DNA from: Candidatus Babeliales bacterium
Lineage (GTDB): Bacteria > Babelota > Babeliae > Babelales > JANWKD01
Direction: 5' to 3'
Length of the DNA: 64,000 nt
NCBI GenBank assembly: GCA_963762115.1
Contig: CAVXJH010000006.1
Location: 288,001-352,000 of the forward strand
Below the pieces are notes generated by a model. It had not been told where the DNA came from and did no database searches. It saw nothing but the letters and a program-made list of their open reading frames with translations. Position 1 is the stretch's first letter; each line of letters begins with the position of its first letter. A program made the position numbers and the translations under genes. Positions 6,968 to 45,212 of this stretch are shown in pieces.

Positions 6968-6970
6968 ATA

Positions 6971-8440: not shown

Positions 8441-8520
8441 TAGGCATCCCACATAATGATTAAGGCGATATGCCATAATCATAAGAAAGATGATTGTTTT
8501 CTTGCAATAGTTTTATTTCT

Positions 8521-8670
8521 TCATTTTTGGTAAAAACTTTGTGCTGTACTTAATCCTGCCATGCCGCCACCGGCAACAAGAACATCAATTGATAAAGATT
8601 TGCGCAATGGTTTTACCGTTTCAAGGTTGAGATACCAAAAAACTTTGTCTCGAGCGAAAATTTTATTCAT
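8521..8670 (-). pseudogene. Duplicated 5' fragment (49 aa) of the FAD oxidoreductase gene
   Basis: VFWYLNLETVKPLRKSLSIDVLVAGGGMAGLSTAQ is nearly identical to the N-terminus of 5687..6967 and is followed by a stop. Confidence 0.85.
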
Positions 8671-15569: not shown

Positions 15570-16511
15570 TTAAGCTTTACATAATTCACCTTTTTTTAGT
15601 AAAGAATTAGCAATCACAATAAGTTTATGCATAATAGCTACGATAGCTATTTTAAAAGGTTTTTTAGAAGTTATTAAACGATCGTAAAGTTCCTTTAATG
15701 GGAGATGATATTTAATAGTTGTTAATGCATACATATAAAGCATATTTCTTGGAATAGTTCTTCCACCTCTGATGAATTTTTTACCCTTATAACTTCCACT
15801 TTCATTCTCATAAGGACAAACACCAATGAGTGCTGATACTTTTTTATTACTTATTTGACCAAGTTCAGGAACGAATGATAATAATGTTGCAGCTGAAGTT
15901 TTGCCTATTCCTGGAATTGACTCCAAAATTTTTGATTTTGTATTTAATTTTTCATCTTGCTGAATTAAATCTTGTATCTTTAAATCAATTGATTTGATTT
16001 CGCACTCTAAGATTTTGATAAATTTCTTTATACTTGATGCATATAATGCATGAGATGGATGTTTAGATCTTGTTTTTTCGGCAACTAAAAATTTTACCAA
16101 GTCATTTTTACGATTGACCAAAGCTTGTAATTTTTCTTGATTTTCGCTTTTGTTCATTATCTCATAATCAGGAGAATTTTTAGAAGCAAATTCAGCAATT
16201 TTTCGAGCATCAATTTTATCCGTTTTGCTTTTGCAGCCACTAGCAACAATATAGCCTTTTATTCTTCTTGGATCGATGATCCAAAGATAATAACAATTTT
16301 TTTTTAATATTCGAGCAAGTAATTTTTCATACCCACCAGTTGCTTCGCATGCAATTTGTTCGATATCATATTTAACTAATTCTTTAATGATCTCCGTTAT
16401 TCCAACTTCTGAGTTTGATACTTTTAAAGATTTTCCTATTGGATGGATATAAACATCTAAAGTGTTTTTTGAAATATCGACACCTATAAATACTTTTGAT
16501 ATATTTTTCAT
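15570..16511 (-). CDS. IS110-family DEDD transposase/recombinase
   Basis: FIGVDISK, CEATGGYE, KTDKIDA (DEDD); SIPGIG; catalytic Ser loop ESGSYKG; IRGGR; AIMHKL. Confidence 0.96.
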   Translation of the reverse strand: MKNISKVFIGVDISKNTLDVYIHPIGKSLKVSNSEVGITEIIKELVKYDIEQIACEATGGYEKLLARILKKNCYYLWIIDPRRIKGYIVASGCKSKTDKIDARKIAEFASKNSPDYEIMNKSENQEKLQALVNRKNDLVKFLVAEKTRSKHPSHALYASSIKKFIKILECEIKSIDLKIQDLIQQDEKLNTKSKILESIPGIGKTSAATLLSFVPELGQISNKKVSALIGVCPYENESGSYKGKKFIRGGRTIPRNMLYMYALTTIKYHLPLKELYDRLITSKKPFKIAIVAIMHKLIVIANSLLKKGELCKA

Positions 16512-28292: not shown

Positions 28293-30071
28293 ATGAAGCG
28301 GTATGGTACATTAGTTTTTATGGTAATCGCGATTTTTATTACCCAAAGATTTAATGCAGGTGCATTAGGTTTTGAAGGTGTTGAGACATCAACCACGGGA
28401 ACCACGAGCGTGGCAAAACCTTCTGTTGGCGGATGGTTTATGAATCGTCTAAAAGCATATGTCAAAGAAACTGAATTAAAAATCAATGAAACATTGCTTG
28501 ATAATAAAGAAAAAGCTTTTACGGTGCGCAAAGAATTAGATTATTTATATGATCAGTTAGGCGATCCGGCAAAGCGCGCTGAAAATGTCAGAGTTTTAAG
28601 CAGTAGTTTTGTGGATATAAAACAACAATTAGAAAAAGATCTTTTAGCCTTACAGCTTGATAATCAAAAATTGCAACTTTTACAAGAAGAGATGAATGCG
28701 GCAACAACTGAATTGAGAAAATCTCAGGTGCAGCAACAGGTTGAATTATTAAAAAATCAGATCCTGACAATAACTATACCAACCTTAGCAACGAAATTTA
28801 GTGATTATTATGTTGATCTTGATGATAGTGTTAGAAAAAATCCTGTAATTCAACAATTTTCCAAATCAATCATTGATACGATAAATGACATTGGTGTTCA
28901 GTTGCAGGGTAAATATTGGCAGCCCTATGCATTACTTAATGATCAAGAAGTTGCCCGTGCGCAACAAATTGCTTTATTAGATCGCTTATTTAATAAAAAT
29001 TTTGATGCATTCTTAAAGGCATTAAAAGATTTTTCTGGTGATGATCTTAGCGAAGGGCTTATTACCAAGAATTTTATACAAGCTTTGAAAAGTTCAAGTC
29101 ATAAAACTATTGAAAATAATCTGATGCTGTTAAAAAAAGTAAACCTATCTGAATTGTCACATGACGCCTTACTCAACGTGCTTACTTTGCAAGCAATTGC
29201 TTATACTCTTCTTGCGCAAGGATTTAACACAGTTCTTTATGATCCACAAAATATTAAAAAAACGTTACAAAACCTTTCGGAATATGGGCAAGGGGATGCA
29301 TTGCGTGATTTTAAGATTATTCTGAGAAAAACAATAAAAAATGCCGTAATTAATGCAGATACTTTGGAAGGAATTTTACAGCAAGATCTCAAAGAATGGG
29401 TAGAAAAAGCACGATCTGATTCAAAAAAAATGATTATATCGCCCTATTTAGACATGCTTAATGCAAATGAAGGTGCTAATACTAATGAACAAAAATTGCT
29501 TCAATTGGTGCGAGAATTTGATACTGAGCAGAATGAACTAGTGCGTTCAATAGATAACAGAGATAGATTTAAAAAATCCCAAGAAAAGTTGGATGAACTT
29601 GCCAGAAGATTTATTGAAGAAATTAATGCGTCAGATCCTTCTCAGTTAGCATTGATTTTGATGAGTAAAATGCAGCATGCTTATAATCAGCTTATTACGA
29701 CTATTTCCCGACGTGGCAAAGAAACAAAATATGGGGCAAAAATAACTCCTGAGCAAGGCAAAGAATTGGTGCAAGCATTATTGAATGCATTGCAACGATC
29801 AACGCAATTAGGGGTGCTGCGATCAATAATACGCGATTATTTAACCGTGGTTGTTGATGGGCAGGTGATAGTATTGCCTCAGATTAAAAAAGAATATGCC
29901 AATGGGTTAATTGAAAATGAAAAAGTGCCTTCTGATGCGGTGCAAGCAAAACGACTTGCGCTTATTCGTCGTAATAGTGTTCAACTTATGAAAAAAACGA
30001 AAAAAGCTTACGGCGTAGATGATCAATCGTATCCCTATTTTGTGTGGCTTATTAAAGGGTTGGAAAATTAA
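28293..30071 (+). CDS. Secreted coiled-coil protein, tandem family member 1
   Basis: Signal peptide; family motifs DPSQ and LTVVVDGQVIVLPQIK. Confidence 0.8.
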   Translation: MKRYGTLVFMVIAIFITQRFNAGALGFEGVETSTTGTTSVAKPSVGGWFMNRLKAYVKETELKINETLLDNKEKAFTVRKELDYLYDQLGDPAKRAENVRVLSSSFVDIKQQLEKDLLALQLDNQKLQLLQEEMNAATTELRKSQVQQQVELLKNQILTITIPTLATKFSDYYVDLDDSVRKNPVIQQFSKSIIDTINDIGVQLQGKYWQPYALLNDQEVARAQQIALLDRLFNKNFDAFLKALKDFSGDDLSEGLITKNFIQALKSSSHKTIENNLMLLKKVNLSELSHDALLNVLTLQAIAYTLLAQGFNTVLYDPQNIKKTLQNLSEYGQGDALRDFKIILRKTIKNAVINADTLEGILQQDLKEWVEKARSDSKKMIISPYLDMLNANEGANTNEQKLLQLVREFDTEQNELVRSIDNRDRFKKSQEKLDELARRFIEEINASDPSQLALILMSKMQHAYNQLITTISRRGKETKYGAKITPEQGKELVQALLNALQRSTQLGVLRSIIRDYLTVVVDGQVIVLPQIKKEYANGLIENEKVPSDAVQAKRLALIRRNSVQLMKKTKKAYGVDDQSYPYFVWLIKGLEN

Positions 30072-30092
30072 AAAATAGTAGGAGTTGTGGTA

Positions 30093-32243
30093 ATGAAACT
30101 TTTTAAAATGGTATTTGTGCTTTCTCTTTTTTGTTTTTCTTTGAATTCTTTATTTGGTATGCATGAACCAGTAAGAACAGAAGGTCCGACAGAAAGAGAA
30201 ATAGAAAAAGCAAAAATTGATTCTAAAGAAACTGAAATTAAAAATAAAAAAGCAGAAATTGAAGCATTAGAAGCAAAAAAAGAAAAAACAACTGAAGATA
30301 TTCAAAAAGAATATGAAAAAAATATTGAATTAAATCAACTTTTGCGTGAACAAATTAAGGCAGAGATAGATTTTGGCAACCAATTTATTGATGAAAAAAT
30401 TAATGCAGAAAAAAAACAAAAAGAACTGGAAGTAGAAAAAAATAATATTGTCGAAAAAATTAAAGCTTTGAATAGTGAGCTTGCAAAACAAGGAACGAGT
30501 ACTATTCCCGAACCAATTGTCCTTAATATTAGCGATAATCTTACATCTGCAATAGAAAATAGTAAAACAACATCTCCTCGCTGGAAAAAACAATTGGAAG
30601 CAGTATTTAATGAATTTAAGGCAAAGGTGAATGAGCTTCCTGTTATTGGTGATCCAAAAAAAGCATTAGCCGCTCGTGATAAATTGGCTACTATTTATAG
30701 TGAATTAGGTGATGTTGTTAATGAAGCTAAGAATTTAATTGAAGCTGGCAAGCTTGATCGTACTATTAACGAATTAGTAGGTTCGAAAGCTGAGTTAAGA
30801 AGGGCATTTAAAGCTTTTGATATTTATGCCGTTGTTTTGGAACGCATCAATGGAGAAATTATTGCAGCGGGTAATGATCCTGCAGCAAAGAAAATTGCTG
30901 TTGATAAAAAATTACGCGCACAACAACAAGCTTTACAAGAGATTGTTTTGAATAGTGCATTGAGATTTAATAGCACAGTTGAATTTTTGAGATATCCTGA
31001 TTTTGTTGATGCATTAAAAAGTGAAAATTTAAAAAAACAAATTGAAAAAATGGAAGGTGATATTGGAACGTTAATTTATAATGTAACTGAGCAACCAAAT
31101 CCTGAACGTTTTTTAAGAACTAAAGCAGAAAAAGACCTTATAGAACAACAACAAAAATTGAATGTTGATGCATTTTTTACTAATGAGGTAAGACCATTTG
31201 ATCAAATGGTTGAAAGCCTCAAAAATAAAATTATAAAACAAAATTTTCGTGGTATTCCTTTGGATAAAGAATATTCTGCGATAAAAAAATATCTTGATTC
31301 TTTTGAGGGTCTCGATATACAAATGCTTTCAAATAAAGAGTTATTAAATGTTTCTGATTTAATGATTAAAACGTATAGAAAATTAATTGATAGTATTGAT
31401 CAACGTGTTGCGCAAATTAATAAAAGTAAGAGTGATCCTTCTGAGCTTATTGTTATTGATGAACAGTTAAGAGTGTTAAGAGAGAATTTAGAAAGATGGG
31501 AAAATCGTGGTGCGCAAGCAAGAGGTGAACTATTTACACCAAAGCAACGCGATCTTATAAGAAACACTATTGAAAAAATTCAGGGAAATAATAGAGATGC
31601 AAAAACTAATGCACAAGATAAGAATGCTCTATTACCAAAACAGGTTGATAATGCTTATAGTTTAGTGAAAGAAGTTGTTGATAGGATCGATCAAGATGAA
31701 AAATTTGCACAATCAAGTGATAAACTTAATAAACAAACAAAAGAAATACTTGAAACTCTTGATACGTCTGACCCATCACAAGATGCTCTTTTGCTCATTG
31801 ATGGCCTTTTGGATTCGTATAATGAGCTTTTAAAAAATTTAAATGAACTAGCCAAAACTCAAGGACCAACCTTATCAGCAAAAAAAAGAGATTTTTTAGC
31901 GGATGCAATGATAAAAGCACAGAATAAACGTCAAGAGTTGACATGGTTTAAAAATACGTATCAAGATCTTTTGACGGTAATTATTAATGATACATTAGTT
32001 TCTTTAGGTCAAGTAAAGAAAGAGAATGTGAGAGCTTTACGTGAAAATGAAAAAATTCCAACAGATGCAATTCAAGCAGAACAATATATAAATCTACGTA
32101 ACAGTAATAAGAAAAAGCCAGCACCTTTACTCTATGATCAAAACACAAGAACACGTTGGCAGGATATATTATTGGGTAAAGTTGAATCAACATCTGGTGG
32201 TTCTCAAGCATCCGATGATGGCACTGGTGGTTATGATGGTTAA
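30093..32243 (+). CDS. Secreted coiled-coil protein, tandem family member 2
   Basis: Signal ...LFG-MHE; DPSQ, LTVIINDTLVSLGQVK, ENEKIPTDAIQA; acidic tail. Confidence 0.8.
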   Translation: MKLFKMVFVLSLFCFSLNSLFGMHEPVRTEGPTEREIEKAKIDSKETEIKNKKAEIEALEAKKEKTTEDIQKEYEKNIELNQLLREQIKAEIDFGNQFIDEKINAEKKQKELEVEKNNIVEKIKALNSELAKQGTSTIPEPIVLNISDNLTSAIENSKTTSPRWKKQLEAVFNEFKAKVNELPVIGDPKKALAARDKLATIYSELGDVVNEAKNLIEAGKLDRTINELVGSKAELRRAFKAFDIYAVVLERINGEIIAAGNDPAAKKIAVDKKLRAQQQALQEIVLNSALRFNSTVEFLRYPDFVDALKSENLKKQIEKMEGDIGTLIYNVTEQPNPERFLRTKAEKDLIEQQQKLNVDAFFTNEVRPFDQMVESLKNKIIKQNFRGIPLDKEYSAIKKYLDSFEGLDIQMLSNKELLNVSDLMIKTYRKLIDSIDQRVAQINKSKSDPSELIVIDEQLRVLRENLERWENRGAQARGELFTPKQRDLIRNTIEKIQGNNRDAKTNAQDKNALLPKQVDNAYSLVKEVVDRIDQDEKFAQSSDKLNKQTKEILETLDTSDPSQDALLLIDGLLDSYNELLKNLNELAKTQGPTLSAKKRDFLADAMIKAQNKRQELTWFKNTYQDLLTVIINDTLVSLGQVKKENVRALRENEKIPTDAIQAEQYINLRNSNKKKPAPLLYDQNTRTRWQDILLGKVESTSGGSQASDDGTGGYDG

Positions 32244-32266
32244 GGGTTAGTGATAAGGGAAATAGT

Positions 32267-34507
32267 ATGAAAGCCATAAAATATTTTTTTTTCTTATTGG
32301 TAAGTTGCTTCATTATCTTGCCATCATTTGCTGGCGTTCGTGAATTGCCAAAAACTGAAGAAATAGCTCGTGAAGAATTAAAAAAAACCGTGAAAGAAAC
32401 TTTAGCTAAGCAACAAGAAATTATAAAAAAAGAACAAGAAATTGAAGAAAAGAAGAAAAATCGTGATGAAGTAGGGCAAAAAAAGGCTGAAGAGCAATTG
32501 ATTGTACTTGATAGAGAAATGCAAAATGCGCTTGATGCAAAAATTAAGGCCGCAAATGATGTGTTACATTTTAAGCCTGAAGATGGAACGGCAATTGGAG
32601 TAAAAGAAACAGCCGCAGAAACAAAAAAAATAATAGAAACTCAAATAAAAAAACTTGCGCAACAATTAAAATCAGAAGGTACATCAACGGTTACGCCAAC
32701 TCAAGATAAGAATGCATCTTTGGGTGAACGAGTGAGTAAAAATTTGCAAATATGGCGTGATACGATATTGGCAAAAGTGTATGAATCATTGGGTAATTAT
32801 GAAAAAGCGAGTAAATTGCGAAGTGATTTATCGAAATTATATGAAGAATTAACCCAACCTTTGAAACAACAAGAACAACAAGAAAATTTGTTAGCATTGG
32901 ATTATCGCATTTCGAAAATAGGAAAACAACTTCCTCAAAGAATTCAAAATAGTATTGTTGGGTTGCAACGTTATCTGAAAACATTAGAAGAAATTAATAA
33001 TACAGAAAAAGAGACTTTAAATGACCTTAAAAGGCCTGATGATCGCGAAAGGGCAAAAAAACTGTCGCAACAATTACGTGATACCGCATTAAAGATGGTA
33101 GATATTGAGAGCATAGCGGTAATAACATTAGAATTGAATGAGCAACTTAATAATTTAAATTTGGAAAAAGTGGCAAAAAAAGCTGGTGTAAAAAAAGAAG
33201 ATATTTCTAAATATTTAATTGATATAAGAACAGAGCTTGAAAATATTTCTAAGAAAATTGAGCTTAATAAAGAAGGTTTTAAGCCGCGGAGTGAGCAAGA
33301 AAGAAATCTAGATGCGATGGCAGAACAAAAAATAATTGATGCATTTTTATCACCGGTAAAACGCAAAATATTTGATGAGCTTTTTAATAAGCTTTTAGGT
33401 GTTGATGGAGCATTGAATAAGAATTTACCGAAAGCTGAAAATAGTGCTGAATTTAAAGAATTGATTACTTCTTTGGAGGCATTGGAAAAGCTTGATTATA
33501 CCCTTTTATCTGATGTTAGCGCGCAAGAAGTAACTTCTTTACTATTTTCTACCTATAGTTCTTTGCAAAAAGCCTATTCTAATTTTATTGCAAGTTCTGC
33601 CTATGCGCAACTTCAGGATTCGGCTAAAACGAAATTAAGGGGTAAGCGAATAACATTGAACAAAAAAGTTGAAAAAGCTTTGCGACAACAAGCAGAATTG
33701 CAAGAAACGAGAAGTATCAGATCATTTAATGCAGAAGGACAAAAAAAATATCAAGAAATCTTTGAAAAAAATCAGAATGCAAGGATTATAGATTCAGCAA
33801 AATTAGAAGCGATAGAAACTTCAATTGGCTATGATAAGGTACGTCTTGAAAAAATGTTTGAAGATTTAACCTCAGTCGGCATTGCAAAAAATATCGATGA
33901 TTTGGTAAAAATATTGGATGAAAAACTTGAAAATGTACTTATCGATATTTCAAGTGCAGATCCATCAACTCGTTCATTAGAATCATTAAGTAGAATTTTT
34001 ACCGCTTTAAACGATTTGAGTAATCAAGTTGTTTTTGCATATCGAACAATAAATAATCTTTCTCCTGAAGCAAAAATGGCCGTATTAAAATTGTATTTAA
34101 TAGTAGATAATCGCTCAGAACAATTTTCAATGCAGATTGCTCGAGATCTTAGTGCATTAACAACGATAATTCCTGCCATTGAAGGTGGGGCTGTTCAAGT
34201 TCAGGTGCCTCAAGTTAAAAGAGCGCAGATAAAAACGCTACGTGAAATACCAAGTGATGCTCCTGATACTCTTATACAAGAAGTGGGAAAACTGTGGATC
34301 GCTGGACAAAATATTGATGCTATAACAAGAAATAATGAACAAAATAAATATATAGCCAAGATTAAAGCAGTTGATGTACAGCCTTCAGAAGAAAATAAAT
34401 GGTTAGTATTTCTTGGTGAAGCAGTTATTGGGCCAAAAGTACAATCTAGGGGAATTGATCAAGCTGCTGGGGGAGAAATTGGTGGTGATGAAAATTATGA
34501 TTATTAA
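32267..34507 (+). CDS. Secreted coiled-coil protein, tandem family member 3
   Basis: Signal peptide; ADPS, VPQVK; 5' region nearly identical to 34533; acidic tail GGDENYDY. Confidence 0.8.
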   Translation: MKAIKYFFFLLVSCFIILPSFAGVRELPKTEEIAREELKKTVKETLAKQQEIIKKEQEIEEKKKNRDEVGQKKAEEQLIVLDREMQNALDAKIKAANDVLHFKPEDGTAIGVKETAAETKKIIETQIKKLAQQLKSEGTSTVTPTQDKNASLGERVSKNLQIWRDTILAKVYESLGNYEKASKLRSDLSKLYEELTQPLKQQEQQENLLALDYRISKIGKQLPQRIQNSIVGLQRYLKTLEEINNTEKETLNDLKRPDDRERAKKLSQQLRDTALKMVDIESIAVITLELNEQLNNLNLEKVAKKAGVKKEDISKYLIDIRTELENISKKIELNKEGFKPRSEQERNLDAMAEQKIIDAFLSPVKRKIFDELFNKLLGVDGALNKNLPKAENSAEFKELITSLEALEKLDYTLLSDVSAQEVTSLLFSTYSSLQKAYSNFIASSAYAQLQDSAKTKLRGKRITLNKKVEKALRQQAELQETRSIRSFNAEGQKKYQEIFEKNQNARIIDSAKLEAIETSIGYDKVRLEKMFEDLTSVGIAKNIDDLVKILDEKLENVLIDISSADPSTRSLESLSRIFTALNDLSNQVVFAYRTINNLSPEAKMAVLKLYLIVDNRSEQFSMQIARDLSALTTIIPAIEGGAVQVQVPQVKRAQIKTLREIPSDAPDTLIQEVGKLWIAGQNIDAITRNNEQNKYIAKIKAVDVQPSEENKWLVFLGEAVIGPKVQSRGIDQAAGGEIGGDENYDY

Positions 34508-34532
34508 AGTTTGGTAATAAAAAGGAAATAGT

Positions 34533-36764
34533 ATGAAAGCCATAAAATATTTTTTTTTCTTATTGTTAGGTTGTGTCATTATCTTGCCATCATTTGCTGG
34601 CGTTCGTGAATTGCAAAAAACTGAAGAAGTAGCTCGTGAAGAATTAAAAAAAACAATGAAAGAAACTTCAGCTAAGCAAGAAGAAATTAGAAAAAAAGAA
34701 CAAGAAATTGAAAAAAATAAAGAAATGGGCAAAGAAGAAGAACAAAAAATAGCTGAAAAAGAACTTATTTCGCTTGATAAGGAAATGAGAGATTTGCTTG
34801 ATGCAAAAATCAAAGCTGCTGATAGGGTGCTTGATTTTGATTATAAAGATGAAACCGCAAAAAAAAGTAAAAAAGATGCTGAAATTACTAAAAAATATCT
34901 TGAATCACAAATAAAAGAGCTTTCAGCAGCGTTAGTTTCAGAAGGAACAACAATTACTCCTGCAAAAGAAGAGATAATTAATTTGTCTTTAGGTGAACGG
35001 TTGAGTAAAAATTTGCAAGTATGGCGCGATACAACGCTTGCTAAAGTTCATGAGTCATTGGGTAACTATGAGAAGGCAAAACAATTGCGTGATAACTTAG
35101 TGACTTTATATGCAGAACTTAATAAACCTTTGAAAGCTGAACAAAATCTGTTGGCAGTAGATCGACTTACTCTTAAATTGGGCGAAATTCCAAAAAGACT
35201 TTCGGAGAATGCTGAGACTCTTATGCATTATCTTGAACGGTTAAATCAAATTGAGATATCAAAAAATAAGAGAATTAAGCTTAAACCAGAAAATAGAAAA
35301 GCAATTGAGGCGGAAGCCCAACGTGCTCGTGATCGATTGTTGAAGCCAGAAGAAATAAGTCAAATTTTTGAAACGACATTGGCGTTACATGATGCTTTAG
35401 CCAATGATGTATTGATGAGAGATGTTGAAAAAGCAAAATTAGAACCTATAGAAAAAGTTCTTGCAACTATTTTAATGATGTTAGATGCATCTAATGCGAA
35501 ATTTAACCCAAGAACAAATGCTGAACGAGTTGCTGATGCAAAAAAACAGGATGTAGTCGTAAAAGAAGTAATGGCCCCAGCACAAATTAAGCAAAGTCTT
35601 GGTGAACCGCTTTCAAGACTAGCGGGTGACAATAAAGCAACAACGATTAAAACGGATCCATTTAAAGCACAAGCAAGCAAAGAATATAAAGATCTTATGA
35701 AGTATGTAGGCAAGTTGGAAGGCATTGATAGAACGTTGTTAAAACCAGAACAACAGCTTGAACTTGCGGCTGTTGTAAAAAATGTGTATGAAAAATTATC
35801 GGAGCAGTATGGGGCATTTTTGGGTGATATCGCTGATTTTAACAAAAGATTTACGCCAGAACAACGAGATGCATTAATCAACACACTCGTTGCTGTTAAT
35901 GGAAAAAAAGAATTATGGAACAATGTTTTGGAAGAAGCCATTCAGGGAGAAAAACTATTTGCAAATGAGAAGAATTTTTTAGAATATCAAAAAAAATATA
36001 ATGCTCTTGGCACAAAAAACAGCAAGGCAAGAGTGGTTAGTGTAGCACGATTAAATGCCGCTGAAATTGCACTAGGCGGCTATAAAAAAAATATTGAAAA
36101 TTTATTAGAAGTGATTACAACACAACAAGATGCACCAGCAAAAATTGATAGTGAATCAAATAAACTAGATCAAAAAATAGAGGAAACGTTATCTGAGGTC
36201 GCAAAAGCTGATCCTTCAGCGCAATCTGTTGAAACATTAAGAAGAATAGTAACTGCTTCAAGTGATCTAATTGGTGAAGTTACCACTGTTTTGAATACAG
36301 CTAATCTTTCACCCGAAGCAGAAACTGCTTTAGTAAAAATAGAGTTAAAAGCAATTATCAGAAATGATCAGGCTTCGTCTGAATTAGCGCGAGACCAAGG
36401 TTCATTAACAACAGTAATTGAAAATAGATTGATTGAATTACCGCAAGTTGAGAGAGCAAATGTTGCTGAATTGCATAGCATGCCAACACCACCGCCACCA
36501 CCATCCGTTGTTCAAATACTTAATGATGCAAACGTTGCCAGTAAAAAACCAGCAAATTTTGGAAAAGGTAACTCTTTGGCAACTGATATAGGTAATGTCA
36601 CTTTGAAAAAAGTAGAAACGCAACCGGGGAAGCAACCGCCTGTCGAAGATTTTGTGAGTTCTTTGCAACAAGCCATAAAAAAAAGAAGAGAAGCGATTGT
36701 TCTTGAAGGAGAGACTCCTGAAGGCACGAGTAGTGAAGATGATGAGAATGGAACATGGGATTAA
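34533..36764 (+). CDS. Secreted coiled-coil protein, member 4, with C-terminal polyPro-WH2-central-acidic (VCA-like) module
   Basis: PTPPPPPS; SLATDIGNVTLKKV; FVSSLQQAIKKRREAI; SSEDDENGTWD-stop. Confidence 0.8.
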   Translation: MKAIKYFFFLLLGCVIILPSFAGVRELQKTEEVAREELKKTMKETSAKQEEIRKKEQEIEKNKEMGKEEEQKIAEKELISLDKEMRDLLDAKIKAADRVLDFDYKDETAKKSKKDAEITKKYLESQIKELSAALVSEGTTITPAKEEIINLSLGERLSKNLQVWRDTTLAKVHESLGNYEKAKQLRDNLVTLYAELNKPLKAEQNLLAVDRLTLKLGEIPKRLSENAETLMHYLERLNQIEISKNKRIKLKPENRKAIEAEAQRARDRLLKPEEISQIFETTLALHDALANDVLMRDVEKAKLEPIEKVLATILMMLDASNAKFNPRTNAERVADAKKQDVVVKEVMAPAQIKQSLGEPLSRLAGDNKATTIKTDPFKAQASKEYKDLMKYVGKLEGIDRTLLKPEQQLELAAVVKNVYEKLSEQYGAFLGDIADFNKRFTPEQRDALINTLVAVNGKKELWNNVLEEAIQGEKLFANEKNFLEYQKKYNALGTKNSKARVVSVARLNAAEIALGGYKKNIENLLEVITTQQDAPAKIDSESNKLDQKIEETLSEVAKADPSAQSVETLRRIVTASSDLIGEVTTVLNTANLSPEAETALVKIELKAIIRNDQASSELARDQGSLTTVIENRLIELPQVERANVAELHSMPTPPPPPSVVQILNDANVASKKPANFGKGNSLATDIGNVTLKKVETQPGKQPPVEDFVSSLQQAIKKRREAIVLEGETPEGTSSEDDENGTWD

Positions 36765-37675
36765 GCCTTAATCGTAGTTTTTTTAACTGATGCATTTTGG
36801 CTAATTTCATCATGATAAAATAACGAGAGTCCTATAAAAACGGTGATTGTGGCCATTAAAAAATCAAAGGTAAGTTGTTCGGCCATAAAAAGCCACCCAT
36901 AGAGTGCAGCAAATAAGGGCGACATAAAGCTGGCAAATGACATCATAGTGGGGGTGAATTTCTTTAAAAGAGTGCCATATAAGTTGTGGCAAATAAGGTT
37001 GCTGACAATAACAATAATGATTAATAAGGTTAAGAATGGTAAAAGATCAGTGATCAACAGTGTGGGATTCTCGGTGAAGTATGAGGTGCCAAGAGCAAAT
37101 AATCCACCAAAAAACATGCTAACACCATTAACAAAGCTTGGTTCATACTGATGATTATTAATTAAACGATGAATAACTAGCCAACCATAACTCATTGAAC
37201 TTACTGAAATTAAAAGGGCAAGCTCTGGCATAAAAAATGCGGTATTTAACCCTGTATATGTTGTTGATGATTTGCCAATAATGGGTAATAAGCCACAAAA
37301 ACCTATTAAAAGTCCAATGCATTTTTTGGGAGTGATTTTTTCATTACAAAATATATAGGAAAGTGTATAGGAAATAAAAGGGCCAAAATTATAGAGAAGA
37401 CAAGCTTTACTTGACGATAAATAGAGCAAGCCCCAATAGCGTAAAATGTAGGGAATATAAATGGTAAAAAGCATAGCTTGCACAAAAAGCCAAAAATCAT
37501 CTCTTTTCACTTTAAAATTGGTACGATTTGTATAGGCATGATAAAGCAGTAAAATACTACCGGCAATTGACATGCGCATACCGACTAAAAAAATGGGCTG
37601 TGTATAAGAAAGTAAGACCTTTCCTAAAGAAAAGGTTGCAGCAAGAAGTGCATATAAAATAACCAATAAATACAT
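36761..37675 (-). CDS. DMT/EamA-family transporter
   Basis: About 10 hydrophobic segments; PIFLVGMRMSIAG, EKIT..K.IG, SPLFAALYGWLFMAE. Confidence 0.9.
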   Translation of the reverse strand: MYLLVILYALLAATFSLGKVLLSYTQPIFLVGMRMSIAGSILLLYHAYTNRTNFKVKRDDFWLFVQAMLFTIYIPYILRYWGLLYLSSSKACLLYNFGPFISYTLSYIFCNEKITPKKCIGLLIGFCGLLPIIGKSSTTYTGLNTAFFMPELALLISVSSMSYGWLVIHRLINNHQYEPSFVNGVSMFFGGLFALGTSYFTENPTLLITDLLPFLTLLIIIVIVSNLICHNLYGTLLKKFTPTMMSFASFMSPLFAALYGWLFMAEQLTFDFLMATITVFIGLSLFYHDEISQNASVKKTTIKA

Positions 37676-37747
37676 AATCTCTTCTTTTTCTGATGGAATT
37701 AATACTTATTTATGGAGTTAAGTTTATACATTTATTGAATATTTGTC

Positions 37748-37784: not shown

Positions 37785-37789
37785 ATATG

Positions 37790-38365
37790 CTAGAAAACAG
37801 GTGATGAATATTTGAGAGATAAGTGTACTGCGTAGTTAACATCAGCAGATATGTTTTTAAGTCTACTGCTTAAAGTGCTGTTTTTAGTGGTGCTCATTTC
37901 TTGACATGCTTTACCATAAAGATATCGTATGCAATTTTTACGCAAGGTATTCAAATTCATGTATTCTGGGTTGCAAGGTGGGTTGTTTTGAAAACTGTGT
38001 GCACAATATTGATCAACCTGTTCACCATAAAAATCCAGGCATGCTGCGCGCACAAAATCAAAAGCATAGTTCAAGAGTTCGGCATTGTTGCGAAATGGTT
38101 TTTCTGCGTGGCGATATTCAATATCCTGAAGAATTGCTGGAATACGGCTATGCTTTAATGTTGTTATTGCATGAGCAAGTGGCTGGGTTTGCAAATCAGG
38201 GCCGCACAAGCGATCGAATTCATTAAGCAGTGCTGTTGAAATATCGGGTAATGCTTCTTGTGATTGTTTAGGTGTTGAGAGCCACCACCAAACTGCCGAT
38301 GATTCATATACTGAAAAAAGAGTTAAGCATGATAAAAATAATGCTATTTTACATTTATGTAACAT
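37790..38365 (-). CDS. Secreted hypothetical protein (family with 39731 and the N-terminal part of 40336)
   Basis: Signal peptide; HAEKPFRNNAELLNYA resembles HKNAPFKNQVEAKQYA; NPEYMNLNTLRK resembles NPYFNIEQLKR. Confidence 0.7.
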   Translation of the reverse strand: MLHKCKIALFLSCLTLFSVYESSAVWWWLSTPKQSQEALPDISTALLNEFDRLCGPDLQTQPLAHAITTLKHSRIPAILQDIEYRHAEKPFRNNAELLNYAFDFVRAACLDFYGEQVDQYCAHSFQNNPPCNPEYMNLNTLRKNCIRYLYGKACQEMSTTKNSTLSSRLKNISADVNYAVHLSLKYSSPVF

Positions 38366-38446: not shown

Positions 38447-39064
38447 TTATTTTTTTCTCAGCCTTCTTTGTTTTGTCGGAGTATGTCTTCCTGGTATTTT
38501 CATATGTTCTACATAATCTTCTTCTGTTAATAGTTTTTGGCAACATATTTTAAATGCCTGATGACGATCTTTTAAATGATGCATAACGCGACTAGGTCTT
38601 GAAAAACTTTTTCTGCAGTTAGGCTTGGGACAATAAAATTTGTTAGGGGCTACATTATGGTATTTCTTAATATGGGTGAATAGTGTTGGATAAGAAGAAA
38701 AATCTTCGCATAAACAGCTACAGCGAGTTTCTTGTGTTATGGCATTAGAACTTAAATCGCGAGATTGATTATCTAAAATTATAAGATTTTGTGGCGGTGT
38801 TTCTTTCAAATATGATTCAATAAGTGGTCTCTGGGAAAGAATTTGTATGGTGAATAATATTCTTTCATAGAACAAGAATTGTTCATTTGTTATCGGTGTT
38901 GCGAGTCTGGACAAGATTTGTTCATTGGTGATCGGTATCACGAGCTTGAAAGGTTTGGGCTTGATTATTTGTGGATGATTGTTTTCTTCCATGCCAAAAA
39001 TATAAGTATTCAATGTTAGTAGCATTACCCATAATGGCAGGTAAATAAGTTTTTGATTATTCAT
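38447..39064 (-). CDS. Secreted C2H2 zinc-finger protein with basic C-terminal tail
   Basis: Signal ...IFG-MEE; CSCLC...HIKKYH; CPKPNCRKSFSRPSRVMHHLKDRH; KQRRLRKK. Confidence 0.8.
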   Translation of the reverse strand: MNNQKLIYLPLWVMLLTLNTYIFGMEENNHPQIIKPKPFKLVIPITNEQILSRLATPITNEQFLFYERILFTIQILSQRPLIESYLKETPPQNLIILDNQSRDLSSNAITQETRCSCLCEDFSSYPTLFTHIKKYHNVAPNKFYCPKPNCRKSFSRPSRVMHHLKDRHQAFKICCQKLLTEEDYVEHMKIPGRHTPTKQRRLRKK

Positions 39065-39659
39065 AAACGATACTATTGTCTTTTTGTCCAAGATTTCTTG
39101 GTTTAGGTTCTCTTTTTTTGCAATTTTTTTTATGGTCTTTAAATTTCTCTTGATTGAGAAATAATTTTTGGCAACATATTTTAAATGCATTATGATGGTC
39201 TCTTAGATGATATATAATTCGAGCAGGCAATTTAGCTGTTGCCGTACATTGTTCCATGGGACATTGATATTTCGTTTCTATGTCTGATTTTATATGCATA
39301 TTTTTTATATGTCCGTATAAGGTAATAAATGACCATGTATTTATTTCTTCGCAAGGACATCGCCATCTTTCGTCAACTGTTACCATTGGTTGGAGATTGG
39401 TTATAAAAGGACTATTATTTTGTGGTGATTCGTCAACGAGGGTAAAATCTCTTTGTTGGTCCTGTGTCTCAAGTGATTCTAGAAATTCATTGAATGTTGC
39501 ATCTAATTCTAACGGTGAGCCTTCAAGTGTTTCATTACATAGAAGTTCTGTGAATAGTGAGGTTACAGGAGTTTCCATGCAAGAACTGAAATGGCTGTTG
39601 ACCATAAGCGCAATTAAGAATAGTGAATAAAAAATTGTTTTATGTTTGAAGATGTTCAT
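39057..39659 (-). CDS. Secreted C2H2 zinc-finger protein (paralog of 38447) with acidic N-terminal region
   Basis: Signal ...SSC-MET; CPMEQC...HLRDHH; AFKICCQKL shared with the neighbouring gene. Confidence 0.8.
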   Translation of the reverse strand: MNIFKHKTIFYSLFLIALMVNSHFSSCMETPVTSLFTELLCNETLEGSPLELDATFNEFLESLETQDQQRDFTLVDESPQNNSPFITNLQPMVTVDERWRCPCEEINTWSFITLYGHIKNMHIKSDIETKYQCPMEQCTATAKLPARIIYHLRDHHNAFKICCQKLFLNQEKFKDHKKNCKKREPKPRNLGQKDNSIVYE

Positions 39660-39730: not shown

Positions 39731-40306
39731 TTATTTATAATGCTGTTGACGATATTTATCACAAGTGTAACAAGCAAAACTAAATAATTTCGTAGCGAGT
39801 TCGCTTTCTAGATTTTTATCTAAATTTTGTAAAAATGTTGCTAAATTACCTTTTGTTTTAAGGTGTTGTAGGGCTTGATTGGCATATTTTTCGCGTATAT
39901 CTCGTTTTAATTGTTCAATATTGAAATAAGGGTTAACGGGAACCGTATAATTAATGTGTTCATTAAGGAAATTTTCAACATAACGATCTTGAAGACTTAA
40001 TGCTACACTTCCTTTTACATTTGCAGCATATTGTTTTGCTTCAACTTGGTTTTTGAACGGTGCATTTTTGTGCTCGGTAAAAACTTCTTGTGCTAATGCT
40101 TGTTTACCTTCATTATGAATTAATGTTTTAATTTTTGCAGCAACAGTAGGATTTGCTTGTTCAGCTGGTTTGAAAACATTAAAAAGTAATTGTTCTGCTT
40201 CACCTGTAATACTTTTTTCGTCGAAAACATACCATGTTGAGCTGAATATTGATGTAGTTGTTAGACTGCAAAGTAAGAATGCAGATAAAAATTTTTGTGT
40301 GTTCAT
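39731..40306 (-). CDS. Secreted hypothetical protein
   Basis: Signal peptide, GGAG RBS; paralogous to 37790. Confidence 0.72.
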   Translation of the reverse strand: MNTQKFLSAFLLCSLTTTSIFSSTWYVFDEKSITGEAEQLLFNVFKPAEQANPTVAAKIKTLIHNEGKQALAQEVFTEHKNAPFKNQVEAKQYAANVKGSVALSLQDRYVENFLNEHINYTVPVNPYFNIEQLKRDIREKYANQALQHLKTKGNLATFLQNLDKNLESELATKLFSFACYTCDKYRQQHYK

Positions 40307-40335: not shown

Positions 40336-41391
40336 TTATAATTTTGAACGTAGGTAAGCTATGCTAAAATCTTTACTATCAATTGGATGTCTGCATATAG
40401 GACATGTTGGTTGTATGTTTTGTTTTATTTGTGCTTCCATGCAACCAATTTGACAACCTGTGCAAATTTGATGACCGCAACGCAAAGTTGATCGTTTTTT
40501 TAGTTCTGTAAAGAATGGTTCAAGACATACACCGCAATCTGTTGCAGAATATATCTTTTTTTCTATTGTTTTACTTTTAAACACTTCTATATCAGTTTCA
40601 CCTTGTGGTAAAATTTCTTCAACGAATTCAACTTGAATATCATCAATATTTGGATAAAGCGATGATGGTTCTGGCCTATTAAATTCTTCGATTCGAGGTG
40701 CAGTTGGGGTATAATCATGAATAACAGCAGGTCTTTGCGGTGTTGTAGTATTTCTTTGATTATTAATATAATTTTTGATGTATGAATCAACATCAGTATT
40801 AAGATTTTTGAACAATTCTTTAACTGATCTTTTGTTTGAAAGTTTTTGATCTATTTGATGACCAAAATGTTCTGCGACTTTTTTTAAATCGTTTTCTTTT
40901 TGTGATGTGGTAATTTTGCTTTGAGCATTTTCAACTACTTTTGTAACAAAAAATTCTCGAATGCCACCGGGTAAATGCTCAAAGGCATATTTCTCTGCTT
41001 GTGCGTGTGTAGCAAAATTTTGTTTAAATGTGTCTGCTACCACTTCTTGTTTTTTCTTCCATAAGCCTTCTTGTATTATAGCTGGTTGATTGTCAATATC
41101 AGCAAGTTCTCTTAATTTTTTTTCTAGACTATCAAAAAGTTGTTGTTTGTCAGGTTTTTGAGCATAAGTGCTTTGTCGTTGAGTTGAATGGTGTGTTTGT
41201 CGTGGTGGCGTAGTTTTTGCAGTATCATGTTGTATTCGTTCTATCTTTTTTGTTTCTTTTTCAACTTCTAATGAAGCTTCAACAAAAAAAATTAAAAGAT
41301 CGTGTAGAAAATGGCCGGCTTTTATAGAATGCGTAATTGCGCAGCAAAATAAAAGTAGAAAAGCACATTTTTTTGTATACTGTTTAATCAT
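40336..41391 (-). CDS. Secreted protein with C-terminal RING-HC finger (candidate E3 ubiquitin ligase)
   Basis: CGVC-x12-CGH-x2-CTGC-x14-CPICR; signal peptide. Confidence 0.85.
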   Translation of the reverse strand: MIKQYTKKCAFLLLFCCAITHSIKAGHFLHDLLIFFVEASLEVEKETKKIERIQHDTAKTTPPRQTHHSTQRQSTYAQKPDKQQLFDSLEKKLRELADIDNQPAIIQEGLWKKKQEVVADTFKQNFATHAQAEKYAFEHLPGGIREFFVTKVVENAQSKITTSQKENDLKKVAEHFGHQIDQKLSNKRSVKELFKNLNTDVDSYIKNYINNQRNTTTPQRPAVIHDYTPTAPRIEEFNRPEPSSLYPNIDDIQVEFVEEILPQGETDIEVFKSKTIEKKIYSATDCGVCLEPFFTELKKRSTLRCGHQICTGCQIGCMEAQIKQNIQPTCPICRHPIDSKDFSIAYLRSKL

Positions 41392-44036: not shown

Positions 44037-45212
44037 CTATTTTGGTTTTTGAAGTTCTTTTTCTAGTAAGTCTAATCTGTTGCTTAAATTTGTTAACTCT
44101 TGTTTTAATTTTTCTTCAGATTTTGACGGTTGTAATAGTTTTAAAGATGAAGATTCAGATAGCTCGTTTTTTTGATAAAAAAATACATAACCATTTTTAT
44201 TAATTTCATTTTGTACGTTAGTAGGTGATTGTTCAGTAATCCTCGAGTCATCGCATAAATACCATTTATTAGCATCCTTGATATAGGCAACATAATGGCC
44301 CCCACCGGTTCCACCTCGATGGACAATAACACTGATCAATGAATAGATATAATCATTTTTTTCTTCAGGAATTTTCATAAATGGTCGAATGTTAATAAAG
44401 GATGGGATAGTCACAGCGTGAGTTAATTTTGAACGCGTTGCACCAAAATTGGTATACTCATAGCGATTGAGTGATATAACTAACAATTCAGGTGTGGTTA
44501 CTAATTGTATTTGTCGTTCGCAATTAGGAATTTCTGCGCCTCGATATGCATTATATGCAGGATTTGTACCTTGATATTTATAATAATTTTTTGGATCATC
44601 TTGAATTTCTTTTTTAAAGTATTCATTTAACGAATCTTCTAAGGTTGTTAAGGACTTTGCGCTAATTTTTTTTCTAGGGTTTGGTGGAGTTTTTATTGGT
44701 ACGGATAAATAAAATATCGGATCTTCATCGTAGAAGGCGATCAATTCGTCGCCCTCAGGAAGTGGGCACCGGGTCTTTGTTGTTTGAAAAATGCCAAGCA
44801 AATTACTAATATATATGTCAAAAGATCTGCTCACCCGTTTTAAACTGTTGAATGCTCCAGTTAGAAATTCTTGAGCATCTTCTTGGGCATATGGGTTTGT
44901 ATCAGCTAATTCGGCAATGATTGCCATACTTGCTTCAGTATAACCTTGCAATGTTGGGTCTTCTTCTTCAATTTTTGTTTTTATCGGCAGCTCCCTTATT
45001 AATTGCTGATAGGCCCCAGGAAAAGTATGTATTTCTTCTATATTATTTGCATCTTTAGAAAGGAACCCTGTAAGAGGTTTAATATTATATAATGATTGTG
45101 TAACTGCATTGAGATAACAGGTATTGCCACAATTAGCTAATCCTGTAGGTCTTGCATAGAGAGCAACTGTTATCTGTGTAGAAATTGCTAAAAAAAATAA
45201 TTTTTTGATCAT
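44037..45212 (-). CDS. Secreted USP (peptidase C19) deubiquitinase-like protein
   Basis: Cys box [26 protein letters not shown], His box [18 protein letters not shown]...WYLCDDSRI...YVFFY; signal peptide. Confidence 0.92.

Follow-up and report, generated by a model that had tools for sequence, protein, structure and literature searches.

Within the window, the whole 64,000-nucleotide stretch of Babeliales DNA that was analysed, ORF 34533..36764 encodes what is, on balance, probably a Sec-exported, all-helical protein restricted to Babeliales, in which the last ~65 residues constitute a V-C-A module (WH2-like motif, central helix and acidic tail) of the WASP/WAVE type and act by the mechanism proposed below. 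Judging from its sequence, this protein probably hijacks the host cytoskeleton, and by analogy with the VCA modules of known nucleation-promoting factors we infer that its tail acts on actin and Arp2/3. The preliminary description had placed four motifs, in the order proline run, V, C and A, at 36483..36764, and the ORF list and translation locate all of them as claimed. The gene and the elements of its tail are as follows:

34533..36764, forward strand: whole gene, the 743-aa product of which is helical, probably exported, and ends in a polyPro-V-C-A module (open reading frame; an identical protein, P0002, is on record).
36483..36503, forward strand: short proline run PTPPPPP, residues 651-657 (translation).
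36570..36614, forward strand: V, the WH2-like motif NSLATDIGNVTLKKV, residues 680-694 (translation and family profile alignment).
36651..36698, forward strand: C, the amphipathic central helix FVSSLQQAIKKRREAI (...KKRREAI), residues 707-722 (helix predicted by AF2; tail alignment).
36699..36761, forward strand: A, the acidic tail VLEGETPEGTSSEDDENGTWD with a penultimate Trp, residues 723-743 (translation).

The PPPP of the proline run is invariant in the three closest tails and is found also in P0019 and P0022. The V element, in which a WH2-like helix is followed by LKKV (SLATDIGNVTLKKV, placed by translation at 36573-36614, with the helix predicted by AF2 at residues 677-687), is atypical in that its helix reads LATDIG and is separated from LKKV by one residue fewer than in N-WASP. 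Along the C helix, RR and the next A never vary among the three closest tails, RR recurs in seven of seven tails, and a hydrophobic residue occupies each of positions F707, L711 and I715 in at least 91% of 22 family rows. The last 20 residues include eight D/E and no K/R, closing with SSEDDENGTWD and the stop codon, and this acidic tail is disordered in the models, where its last 16-18 residues have pLDDT <50 and make no confident contact with the body. The sequence features by which class I nucleation-promoting factors are recognized, namely WH2/V (here by family profile), C, A, and this order after a proline stretch at the extreme C-terminus, are thus all found.

This V-C-A motif pattern exceeds chance. 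A loose V<C<acidic-W regular expression, calling within the final 100 aa for L[KRTL][KRPEST][VTAI] and then a C-like ...R[RK]..[LIVM], together with a W among the final eight residues and five or more D/E among the final 20, is matched by one of 2013 own-genome ORFs of at least 80 aa, namely ORF 34533..36764, whereas the single criteria are matched by 447, 31 and 15 of the 2013. An HMM of seven family tails likewise has this ORF as its sole match in its own genome (E 4e-28; next 0.047), and no second VCA protein was found there by the same search.

The reading of the tail as a WASP-type polyPro-V-C-A is borne out by profile searches, which retrieve N-WASP and WAVE1 first in the PDB and WASP-family proteins among 5.8e9 sequences. 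Against 177,635 PDB sequences, a profile of three tails, unselected and giving E values of only 0.03-0.09, places N-WASP chimeras or WAVE1 at all of ranks 1-5 (E 0.033-0.088), in register. A profile of seven tails, picked by eye for their V/C/A look from ~30 family tails, places N-WASP, WASL, WAVE1 or WASP-like sequences at all of ranks 1-9 of 13 in the same database, with best E values of 5.5e-6 (3m3n_W), 2.9e-5 (2vcp_D) and then 1.6e-3 and with the WH2 motifs of N-WASP and WAVE1 aligned; its match to 6uhc_H is a single alignment over N-WASP residues 431-492, running from V through A. The C helix is aligned in register with ...VMQKRSKAI or ...MQKRSKAI of N-WASP and with ...LSRRIAV of WAVE1. 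Among the 5.8e9 proteins the tail profile found 11 matches at E<=10, eight of them from the family itself, followed by P0029 (9.5e-5) and P0030 (0.034). PDB search identified P0029 as an I-BAR plus N-WASP-like protein and P0030 as a WAVE homologue, and the latter also passes Pfam WH2. Both are eukaryotic WASP-family proteins, to which hhalign assigned the tail profile with probabilities of 96.3% and 94.8%, respectively, V and C being in register. RickA was absent from the matches of this search and from those of the family homologue search.

Searches that started from the single tail returned little: phmmer of the 93-aa tail against the PDB gave one unrelated weak match only, YqeY (E 1.3), and a word-indexed search for the tail region by itself gave nothing beyond the source protein. 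The Pfam WH2 HMM (PF02205), which the preliminary description had put forward as a check, did not recover the motif, reporting no row at E<=10 for the ORF 34533..36764 protein or its tail. At the homologous place, two of the 18 homologues scanned have rows below the gathering cut-off of 23.1 bits, P0018 with 14.8 bits (E 0.023, its top match) and P0020 with 12.4 bits (E 0.13, its only match), and the other 16 have no WH2 row.

The protein belongs to a family of 25 clusters as delimited by homologue search, found in five of 261 genomes of the phylum, all within a Babeliales subclade. The assignment to Babelota/Babeliales agrees with the only named relative. Conservation of LKKV and of the terminal Trp had been named as one point on which the VCA reading would stand or fall, and the reading came through: the L of LKKV, RR and the Trp are kept in homologues. 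P0003 (60% identity) and P0004 (36%) retain PPPP, the L of LKKV, RR-x-A and acidic-W, and the terminal Trp is retained in P0003, P0004, P0018, P0019 and copy A of genome G097. The most canonical WH2 motifs are carried by the most distant homologues, P0018/P0028, P0020 and P0010 having near-textbook versions (ALLKSIQEGIKLK[T/K]T, ALLDSIRAGRTLKEV and GLLTQLKAGKKGLKSV, respectively) that are followed by ...RR..[IML] helices. A metagenome scan with a five-row family alignment found nothing, and one with P0003 recovered that protein's own contig. In G110, a genome of the same genus, family members are present, none of them with a full V-C-A, and the module is therefore dispensable.

The family also bears on a first alternative, to which we assign a small probability, that the tail binds actin and/or Arp2/3 without activating branching, either as a WH2-only monomer binder or nucleator or as a C-A competitor or inhibitor of Arp2/3. 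Isolated CA fragments and the acidic-Trp tail of Arpin are models for non-activating Arp2/3 binding of this kind, which would account equally well for the VCA likeness. Some family members do have partial modules, copy B of G097 carrying a WH2 without C-A, copy A of G097 carrying C-A, and P0020 carrying V-C without the acidic tail, and the terminal aromatic is kept far beyond the full module: in the aligned column all 18 non-gap rows have an aromatic residue, W in eight, Y in seven and F in three, and an aromatic lies within the last eight residues of 26 of 32 family tails. However, all three elements occur in canonical order and spacing, which is the defining mark of activating class I factors, in the ORF 34533..36764 copy as well as in P0003, P0004, P0010 and P0018, and the N-WASP alignment in 6uhc_H does not stop short of A. 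For the degenerate paralogues described below, which keep only G-G-[W/Y]-[D/E], non-activating binding is the more likely reading.

Upstream of the tail, AF2 predicts two further helical regions:

34614..34943, forward strand: residues 28-137, long charged helices near the N-terminus that resemble a coiled coil or single helices (AF2).
35514..36482, forward strand: residues 328-650, the body domain, compact and entirely helical, with a fold that was not recognised (AF2).

The protein had been described as a coiled coil, a label that may suit its N-terminal third of long charged helices (residues 28-65, 68-100 and 107-137; pLDDT ~60-82) and does not suit residues 328-727, which form a compact helical bundle (pTM 0.86 and mean pLDDT 88.0 for the model of residues 328-743, with the tail helices at pLDDT 83-93). 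Foldseek matched neither the full-length model nor that of residues 328-743 to any PDB entry at E<=0.001. In a wide VIA-align search the highest Z was 12.2, for a designed repeat protein, followed by values of ~9 for the helical bundles of syntaxin, MukF and STAT; since these scores lie within helical-bundle noise, no fold is assigned to the body.

When the body (residues 328-650) and the tail (residues 651-743), which are parts of one polypeptide, were modelled as two chains, the predicted complex scored 0.83 vs 0.00 for the best control. The corresponding docking mark, which includes run agreement of at least 75% of contacts and a partner pLDDT of at least 65, is attained by 116 out of 157 complexes of solved structure and by 2 out of 215 mismatched pairs, a calibration that is only rough here because a custom alignment was used. 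The tightest predicted contacts join L682, A683, I686, G687 and V689 to body residues 539-550 and 598-610, and the body residues of the predicted interface are no more conserved than the remainder (mean entropy per alignment column 2.62 vs 2.50; p 0.85 in a one-sided Mann-Whitney test). That the models dock V and C onto the body suggests autoinhibition, and it can equally be reconciled with both helices being structural parts of the fold.

The latter possibility is central to a second alternative, improbable in our estimation, by which the two tail helices that resemble V and C do no more than complete the bundle of an envelope or periplasmic protein with no role on host actin, and their VCA likeness is convergent or fortuitous. 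Consistent with it, both structure tools pack the helices on the body with high confidence, the hydrophobic helix positions are kept in all paralogues, even those that lack LKKV, RR and the acidic features, the protein bears a Sec signal in a genome where no dedicated host-injection system was found, and Pfam WH2 has no match for the ORF 34533..36764 copy. Yet resting WASP and WAVE likewise keep their V and C helices docked or sequestered, so that docking is no argument against a VCA. Moreover, calibrated E values of 5.5e-6 (PDB, with the seven tails picked by eye) and 9.5e-5 (5.8e9 sequences) single out only WASP-family VCAs; LKK, RR and the acidic run with its Trp have no obvious structural reason and nevertheless recur across the tree; the acidic-Trp end is predicted to be free and disordered; and the gene has eukaryote-like neighbours. 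Very improbable is a third alternative, that the acidic-Trp end is a linear motif for some other host machine (kinesin light chain 'W-acidic', adaptor or coat appendage sites) while the upstream helices serve otherwise: W-acidic motifs do bind other host proteins such as kinesin light chain, and no other feature of the tail is conserved as widely as the terminal aromatic-acidic motif, but the in-register WH2 and C-helix matches would be left unexplained, and no search pointed to such partners.

Two features of the window relate to export:

34533..34598, forward strand: Sec-type signal peptide, residues 1-22 (MKAIK, a hydrophobic core, and SFA|G), read from the sequence by eye.
21321..22592, forward strand: gene for a T2SS/T4P platform protein F, ~3 kb upstream of the array of family genes (Pfam T2SSF, E 6.6e-46).

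Full-length family members start with a similar short hydrophobic N-terminal stretch, and the family is probably Sec-exported. Two other signals were considered and set aside. The LLGC at residues 11-14 resembles a lipobox, which is unlikely because Cys 14 is not conserved, being absent in P0005, P0008 and others; a C-terminal signal of the T1SS/RTX type is incompatible with the N-terminal Sec signal, and the repeats are absent. The genome (95% completeness) has two secretins and a T2SS-F gene, and neither VirB4 nor FHIPEP, markers of T4SS and T3SS, was found in it at that completeness. A T2SSF gene lies upstream in L017 too (E 6.5e-46), and a look-alike, by resemblance, in G097. A Sec signal is by itself insufficient to bring a protein into host cytoplasm. 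For the cultured relative Chromulinavorax, the pertinent sections of PMC6561590 give 44% of CDS with signal peptides, describe effectors as thought to be Sec-dependent, and report that the cells get into the host cytoplasm.

The gene is the last of a tandem array, the other members and borders of which are:

25562..26485, forward strand: gene for an alpha/beta hydrolase, which forms the conserved border on the upstream side (Pfam Hydrolase_4, E 1.2e-13).
28242..30071, forward strand: paralogue 1, 592-609 aa, likely start ATG at 28293, without an acidic-aromatic end (open reading frame; P0007).
30087..32243, forward strand: paralogue 2, 716-718 aa, with the tail ...RWQDILLGKVESTSGG...GGYDG (open reading frame; P0006).
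32267..34507, forward strand: paralogue 3, 746 aa, the closest paralogue (38-42% identical to the VCA copy), with the degenerate tail ...GGDENYDY.
36761..37675, reverse strand: convergent gene for an EamA-family transporter, a conserved neighbour (Pfam EamA, E 5.4e-31; likewise in L017, G108, G110 and G097).

The existence of three upstream tandem paralogues without the full module agrees with the preliminary description, whereas its suggestion that the module was grafted onto one family member finds no support. In a family tree built from the bodies only, with the last 100 aa removed, V/C/A-bearing rows fall on both sides; the paralogues have degenerate remnants of the module, consisting of two tail helices with their hydrophobic positions kept and a G-G-[W/Y/F]-[D/E] end; and the EamA-adjacent locus is conserved. 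Homologues of the hydrolase occupy the same place in L017, G110, G108 and G097, the order hydrolase, family genes, EamA being conserved in five genomes or contigs, and the EamA neighbour marks the ancestral position of the VCA copy. Paralogue 1 has orthologues in L017 and G110, as has paralogue 2, the orthologues of which have GGYDY and GGGWDG ends. Paralogue 3 belongs to the same clade as the VCA copies in the body-only tree and is missing from the syntenic arrays of L017 and G110. The V-C-A would then be ancestral to the family and the upstream tandem paralogues duplicates, which may have lost LKKV, RR and the acidic features while keeping the two helices and the terminal G-G-aromatic-acidic end.

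The neighbourhood also contains eukaryote-like genes, encoding a USP deubiquitinase and RING-like and C2H2-like proteins. A scan of positions 27800-37900 for promoters and terminators showed no excess, with 29 promoter-like sites vs a shuffle mean of 40.0 and six terminator-like sites vs 5.4. A search of sequencing runs listed no RNA run, and two DNA runs contain 0.26 and 0.06 of the words.

With the VCA of N-WASP/WASL, WASP and WAVE1/SCAR the Babeliales tail shares a proline run, a WH2 (helix plus LKKV-type), a basic C helix and an acidic Trp tail, and its V and C helices are predicted by the model to be sequestered like those of WASP and WAVE. Unlike these eukaryotic factors, the protein is bacterial, has a Sec signal peptide, lacks WH1, GBD and SCAR-homology domains, and has as its body a helical bundle of no recognised fold, while its proline run comprises only five residues and its WH2 is too divergent for Pfam's model. 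Other pathogen surface proteins engage Arp2/3 via CA-like or WCA-like segments, as do Listeria ActA and baculovirus p78/83. BimA, a surface protein of Burkholderia thailandensis, does likewise in the account of it given in PMC9569871. By their descriptions, these three differ from the Babeliales protein in body, BimA being a trimeric autotransporter and ActA a Gram-positive membrane-anchored protein. WH2-type actin-monomer binding motifs are ascribed to Vibrio VopL/VopF, Chlamydia Tarp and Legionella RavH/MavH in PMC9569871 and in the titles and abstracts of further papers. Those proteins nucleate actin free of Arp2/3 and are injected by T3SS or T4SS, whereas the Babeliales protein adds C, A and a Sec signal.

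The nearest bacterial counterpart is Rickettsia RickA, which directly activates Arp2/3 according to the relevant parts of PMC11077975 and PMC9569871, and which the former describes there as having no Sec signal peptide and as reaching the bacterial surface by an unknown route. By description, both proteins come from obligate intracellular bacterial lineages and carry a WASP-like C-terminal module behind a helical N-terminal part. In contrast to RickA, and to the lack of a Sec signal that characterizes its family, the Babeliales proteins have a signal-peptide-like N-terminus; they also belong to a different phylum (Babeliales vs Alphaproteobacteria) and occur in tandem arrays with degenerate copies. 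By analogy we infer that the Babeliales protein stands alongside RickA as a VCA-type mimic. The preliminary description knew of no such mimic for this lineage, and a literature search combining WH2 with the taxon names found no paper linking them among those it listed.

In the proposed mechanism, the signal peptide read from the sequence would take the protein to the periplasm, from where it might be released towards the host by type II secretion/secretin machinery or by outer-membrane vesicles. Once in the protist cytoplasm, the WH2-like helix and LKKV would bind an actin monomer, and the C helix and acidic-Trp tail would bind and activate host Arp2/3, leading to branched actin being nucleated at the protein, as the likeness to N-WASP, WAVE and RickA suggests for both steps. 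For the free protein, prediction has both helices, V and C, docked on the body and only the acidic tail free, and the protein may therefore be autoinhibited until its tail is released. A more far-reaching version, which we put forward tentatively and regard as rather unlikely in its entirety, is that the Babeliales subclade possesses an ancient set of Sec/T2SS-exported, autoinhibited Arp2/3 activators, with the V-C-A derived from a protist WASP-family gene. The body would then clamp V and C until a host cue arrives, a re-invention of WASP/WAVE autoinhibition, and the G-G-[W/Y]-[D/E] paralogues would be Arp2/3-binding modulators or decoys.

To our knowledge, very few pathogens have direct mimics of the WASP V-C-A, RickA being the clearest case, and all of these mimics have been studied in animal cells. 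Babeliales/Dependentiae are obligate protist parasites, and we are aware of almost nothing on their effectors. If the assignment of a WASP-type V-C-A to this family is true, hijacking of Arp2/3 through VCA mimicry would extend to bacterium–protist interactions, and the protein would be the first effector of its phylum with a testable biochemical activity. Both the signal peptide and a body predicted to clamp V and C would, if confirmed, be new for a bacterial nucleation-promoting factor. The tandem arrays set natural variation side by side (the full V-C-A, V alone, C-A alone and A-like alone), through which the roles of the individual elements may be dissected, and, should the ancient-family reading be true, the whole array would adjust how the host assembles branched actin while the bacterium is being taken up or lives inside the cell.

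Four family genes lie in tandem in the window, and the last of them, the VCA copy, carries the complete tail.

28242..30071 (+), paralogue 1, without the full motif set
30087..32243 (+), paralogue 2, likewise
32267..34507 (+), paralogue 3, likewise
34533..36764 (+), VCA-copy gene, an ORF of 743 aa

Translation of ORF 34533..36764 bears out the tail motifs and positions of the preliminary description; its statement that the three paralogues directly upstream lack the full module also holds. The last 93 residues read PTPPPPPS-VVQILNDANVASKKPANFGKG-NSLATDIGNVTLKKV-ETQPGKQPPVED-FVSSLQQAIKKRREAI-VLEGETPEGTSSEDDENGTWD-stop, a polyproline stretch, a WH2-like motif (V), a central helix (C) and an acidic end (A), with SLATDIGNVTLKKV at 36573-36614. 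Such a combination is not expected by chance, since it is found in 1 of 2013 own-genome ORFs (at least 80 aa), the VCA copy, under a loose pattern requiring an LKKV-type tetrapeptide before an ...R[RK]..[LIVM] helix, both in the last 100 residues, a W in the last 8 and at least five D/E in the last 20 (single criteria admit 447, 31 and 15 ORFs), and since an HMM of the family tail finds only the VCA copy in its own genome (E 4e-28; next best 0.047).

Motif content and order are conserved at the sequence level. The closest homologues end in ...APPPPPT...INSLAKEISKVALTKT...ELVADLANSLTARRAAM...DDSDDTDWND (P0003, 60% identical) and ...APPPPPY...WNDIINAGNRILLKPV...IAFSIEEAMKSRRIAI-EDSSSDEDEPWTEGY (P0004, 36% identical), and a check across these two tails and that of the VCA copy found the prolines, the L of LKKV, RR-x-A and acidic residues invariant. 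In distant members the module is more canonical than in close ones: ALLKSIQEGIKLK[T/K]T ... FAKIIADALATRREVI ... GDEGSGWEDF in P0018/P0028, GLLTQLKAGKKGLKSV ... LSAILQKAIVARRPSL ... EEEEPSSDTEFED in P0010, a proline run ... LVDVLSSALIARRNAI ... EEEPWDPENL in P0019, and ALLDSIRAGRTLKEV ... LFNAIKNRRNAM, with the acidic end absent, in P0020.

The Pfam WH2 HMM proposed earlier as a check gave no match to the VCA copy; among 18 homologues it matched two, both sub-threshold, yet at the expected place, and a search of the PDB with the single VCA-copy tail found nothing. Statistical support for a likeness to N-WASP/WAVE V-C-A comes from profiles searched against all 177,635 distinct PDB sequences. 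With the three closest tails, ranks 1-5 were N-WASP chimeras and WAVE1 (E 0.033-0.088), LKKV aligning on GIQLKSV/GIQLRKVEE, the C helix on ...VMQKRSKAI/...SRRIAV and acidic on acidic residues. With seven tails, hand-picked by eye for visible V/C/A features, ranks 1-9 of 13 were all N-WASP, WASL, WAVE1 or WASP-like chains, with E-values of 5.5e-6 (3m3n_W), 2.9e-5 (2vcp_D), 1.6e-3 (6uhc_H, in a single alignment across V, C and A) and 3e-3, then 0.02-1. Run in longer-protein mode over 5.8 billion proteins, of which 8000 candidates were scored, the seven-tail profile retrieved eight family members, followed by P0029 (9.5e-5), P0030 (0.034) and P0031 (6). P0029, the nearest non-family match, is a eukaryote-like metagenome protein of 458 aa that joins a full VCA to a stretch like the N-WASP GBD and an I-BAR-like N-terminus (4nqi_A, E 4.7e-16); P0030, whose N-terminus matches WAVE1 at E 9e-21 and which passes Pfam WH2, is by sequence a SCAR/WAVE homologue. 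Aligned with the tail profile by hhalign, they score 96.3% and 94.8% probability, respectively, from WH2 through the C helix. By these searches, the tail's closest sequence relatives are eukaryotic N-WASP/WAVE VCAs. P0031, a metagenome protein of 325 aa with a signal peptide and a body differing from that of the family, contains TPPP..., ...LYETIQKRRKSIQ and EAEEEQEEESTDWND and ends ...LYETIQKRRKSIQEAEEEQEEESTDWND; hhalign gives it 84.7% over the C-A part, and it may represent a second bacterial-looking family with the same C-A tail.

The proposal that the module was grafted onto one family member is not supported by the spread of V/C/A-bearing members across a body-only tree or by conserved gene order. 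In the tree (23 rows, last 100 residues cut, quick IQ-TREE, SH-aLRT support) the window copy, P0003, P0004 and paralogue 3 share one starred 8-row clade, and the other half holds P0010, P0018+P0020 and both copies of G097, a genome from another family of the order; V/C/A-bearing members occur in both halves, and thus throughout the family. Five places share the order hydrolase, family gene(s), convergent EamA transporter:

window: 4 copies; the hydrolase is followed by an inserted AAA-ATPase/PD-(D/E)XK gene
L017, the contig of P0003: 3 copies, the VCA copy last and adjoining EamA
G110, same genus: 2 copies, the last ending GGGWDG
G108, same family: 1 copy (P0020, V-C), adjoining EamA
G097, other family of the order: 2 copies, one C-A ending ...EESSDWD, one with canonical WH2 LLAKVKSGPQLRPV

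In both the window and L017 the array is preceded, at a distance of a few kb, by a T2SS-F gene. The tandem G097 copies (L020 4461..6551 (-) and 6564..8612 (-)) split the module between them, one having the WH2 without C-A and the other a C-like helix and the acidic end. The two tail helices persist even in degenerate paralogues: across 22 rows, F707, L711 and I715 stay hydrophobic in at least 91%. At the aligned terminal aromatic column all 18 non-gap rows have W (8), Y (7) or F (3), and 26 of 32 family tails have an aromatic within their last 8 residues. G110, of the same genus, has no full V-C-A copy, so the module can be lost. These comparisons place V-C-A in an ancestral position, the simplest reading being that it decayed repeatedly in duplicates.

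The family is narrowly distributed. Exhaustive HMMER of 1.84 billion representatives yielded 25 proteins at E<=1e-3, 15 of them at E<=1e-30, and at E<=1e-5 matches occur in 5 of 261 phylum genomes, namely the source genome (1.53 Mb, ~33% GC, 95% complete), three of the four others of its taxonomic family and one of ten from one other family of the order; the rest gave none at that threshold. A relative was found in a 'Candidatus Babeliales bacterium' MAG, where the 731-aa ORF L004 5977..8172 is the same gene as P0005 (703 aa) with a different C-terminus (...ESAGWDI and ...KYLLQKLVHLSLKVQN, respectively), so that one record, through a frameshift or assembly difference, does not show the Trp end. 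The body matches no family in a Pfam scan of the VCA copy and homologues. Full-length members examined open with a few basic residues followed by a hydrophobic core, and the signal-peptide-like N-terminus of the VCA copy, MKAIK-YFFFLLLGCVIILPSFA|G, reads as a Sec signal peptide; a lipoprotein is unlikely because the Cys of this region is not conserved in the family.

AlphaFold2 models the full-length VCA copy (22-row alignment) as all-helical with mean pLDDT 73.5, and residues 328-743 alone at pLDDT 88.0 and pTM 0.86, with helices at 657-671, 677-687 (WH2) and 703-725 (C) at pLDDT 83-93 and the last 16 residues disordered; no fold stands out in a PDB fold search with these models. When the body (328-650) and the tail (651-743) of this single polypeptide are predicted as a complex, they score 0.83 against 0.00 for the best control. 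Among solved complexes 116 of 157 attain that mark, and among mismatched pairs 2 of 215, counts that are rough because a custom alignment was used. Runs share at least 75% of contacts, with partner pLDDT of at least 65. The tightest contacts join the WH2 helix, through its hydrophobic face (L682, A683, I686, G687 and V689), and the C helix (706-722) to body helices 535-558 and 595-628; none of the confident contacts involves the acidic tail. V and C helices are sequestered in resting WASP and WAVE, a state that the predicted docking resembles. The same docking can equally mean that the helices are structural, and the interface shows no extra conservation over other body residues (entropy 2.62 vs 2.50, p 0.85).

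The source genome has two secretin genes and one T2SS-F gene, and searches for VirB4 and FHIPEP in this 95% complete assembly gave no match. TM6/Dependentiae genomes are reported to have T2SS components in common, gspD being present in two copies (PMC4776705). PMC6561590 describes Chromulinavorax destructans as ending up in the host cytoplasm, with signal peptides on 44% of CDS, putative effectors thought to be Sec-exported, and outer-membrane vesicles. Together, the secretins, T2SS-F and these traits of relatives make export by Sec-plus-T2SS or vesicles plausible. Near the array lie eukaryote-like genes too, for C2H2-like proteins, a RING-like protein and a deubiquitinase of USP type; they are among the following neighbours:

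13940..15328 and 15570..16511 (-), Tn5-type and IS110-type transposase genes side by side, ~10 kb upstream of the array
26501..28063 (-), AAA-ATPase_like + PD-(D/E)XK (PDDEXK_9) gene between hydrolase and array
37790..38365 and 39731..40306 (-), paralogous 191-aa signal-peptide proteins, no Pfam match
38447..39190 and 39057..39659 (-), adjacent, partly overlapping ORFs of paralogous small proteins with C2H2-like Cys/His motifs
40336..41391 (-), 351-aa RING-finger-like protein, C-terminal PF24921 at 24.7 bits, under the 50-bit cut-off
44037..45212 (-), eukaryote-type ubiquitin-specific protease (Pfam UCH PF00443, E 2.7e-45)

The last is likely a host-directed deubiquitinase, and G110 has a USP look-alike in the syntenic position (L018 721..1929). 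The RING-like protein may be a secreted E3-ligase mimic; its G110 homologue (L018 4581..5627) has a signal-peptide-like N-terminus. Both small C2H2-like proteins have hydrophobic N-termini and sub-threshold matches (zf-C2H2 E 0.0056, Sina_ZnF E 0.0057), with a counterpart at the same place in G110. Homologues of the 191-aa proteins adjoin EamA in L017 (13484..14113) and G110 (L018 6332..6943), so the 191-aa proteins belong to the conserved neighbourhood. The AAA/PDDEXK_9 gene, absent between hydrolase and array in both, looks like an insertion.

In function, RickA is the nearest analogue; this bacterial nucleation-promoting factor mimic lacks a Sec signal (PMC11077975; PMC9569871), whereas the VCA copy has a Sec-signal-like N-terminus. 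Among 40 of 49 openly accessible papers (main texts) that mention Dependentiae, Babela, Babeliales or Chromulinavorax, none also mentions WH2, in keeping with the earlier remark that no such mimic is known to be described for this probable lineage, and no openly accessible paper searched brings Dependentiae, effector and cytoskeleton together. Pathogen-encoded V-C-A mimics are already known; what is new here is the phylum and the body, and possibly also Sec-dependent export and a predicted intramolecular clamp. In the mechanism proposed, the VCA copy would be exported to the host, where, with autoinhibition released, V would bind G-actin and C-A would bind and activate Arp2/3, the paralogues perhaps acting as modulators.
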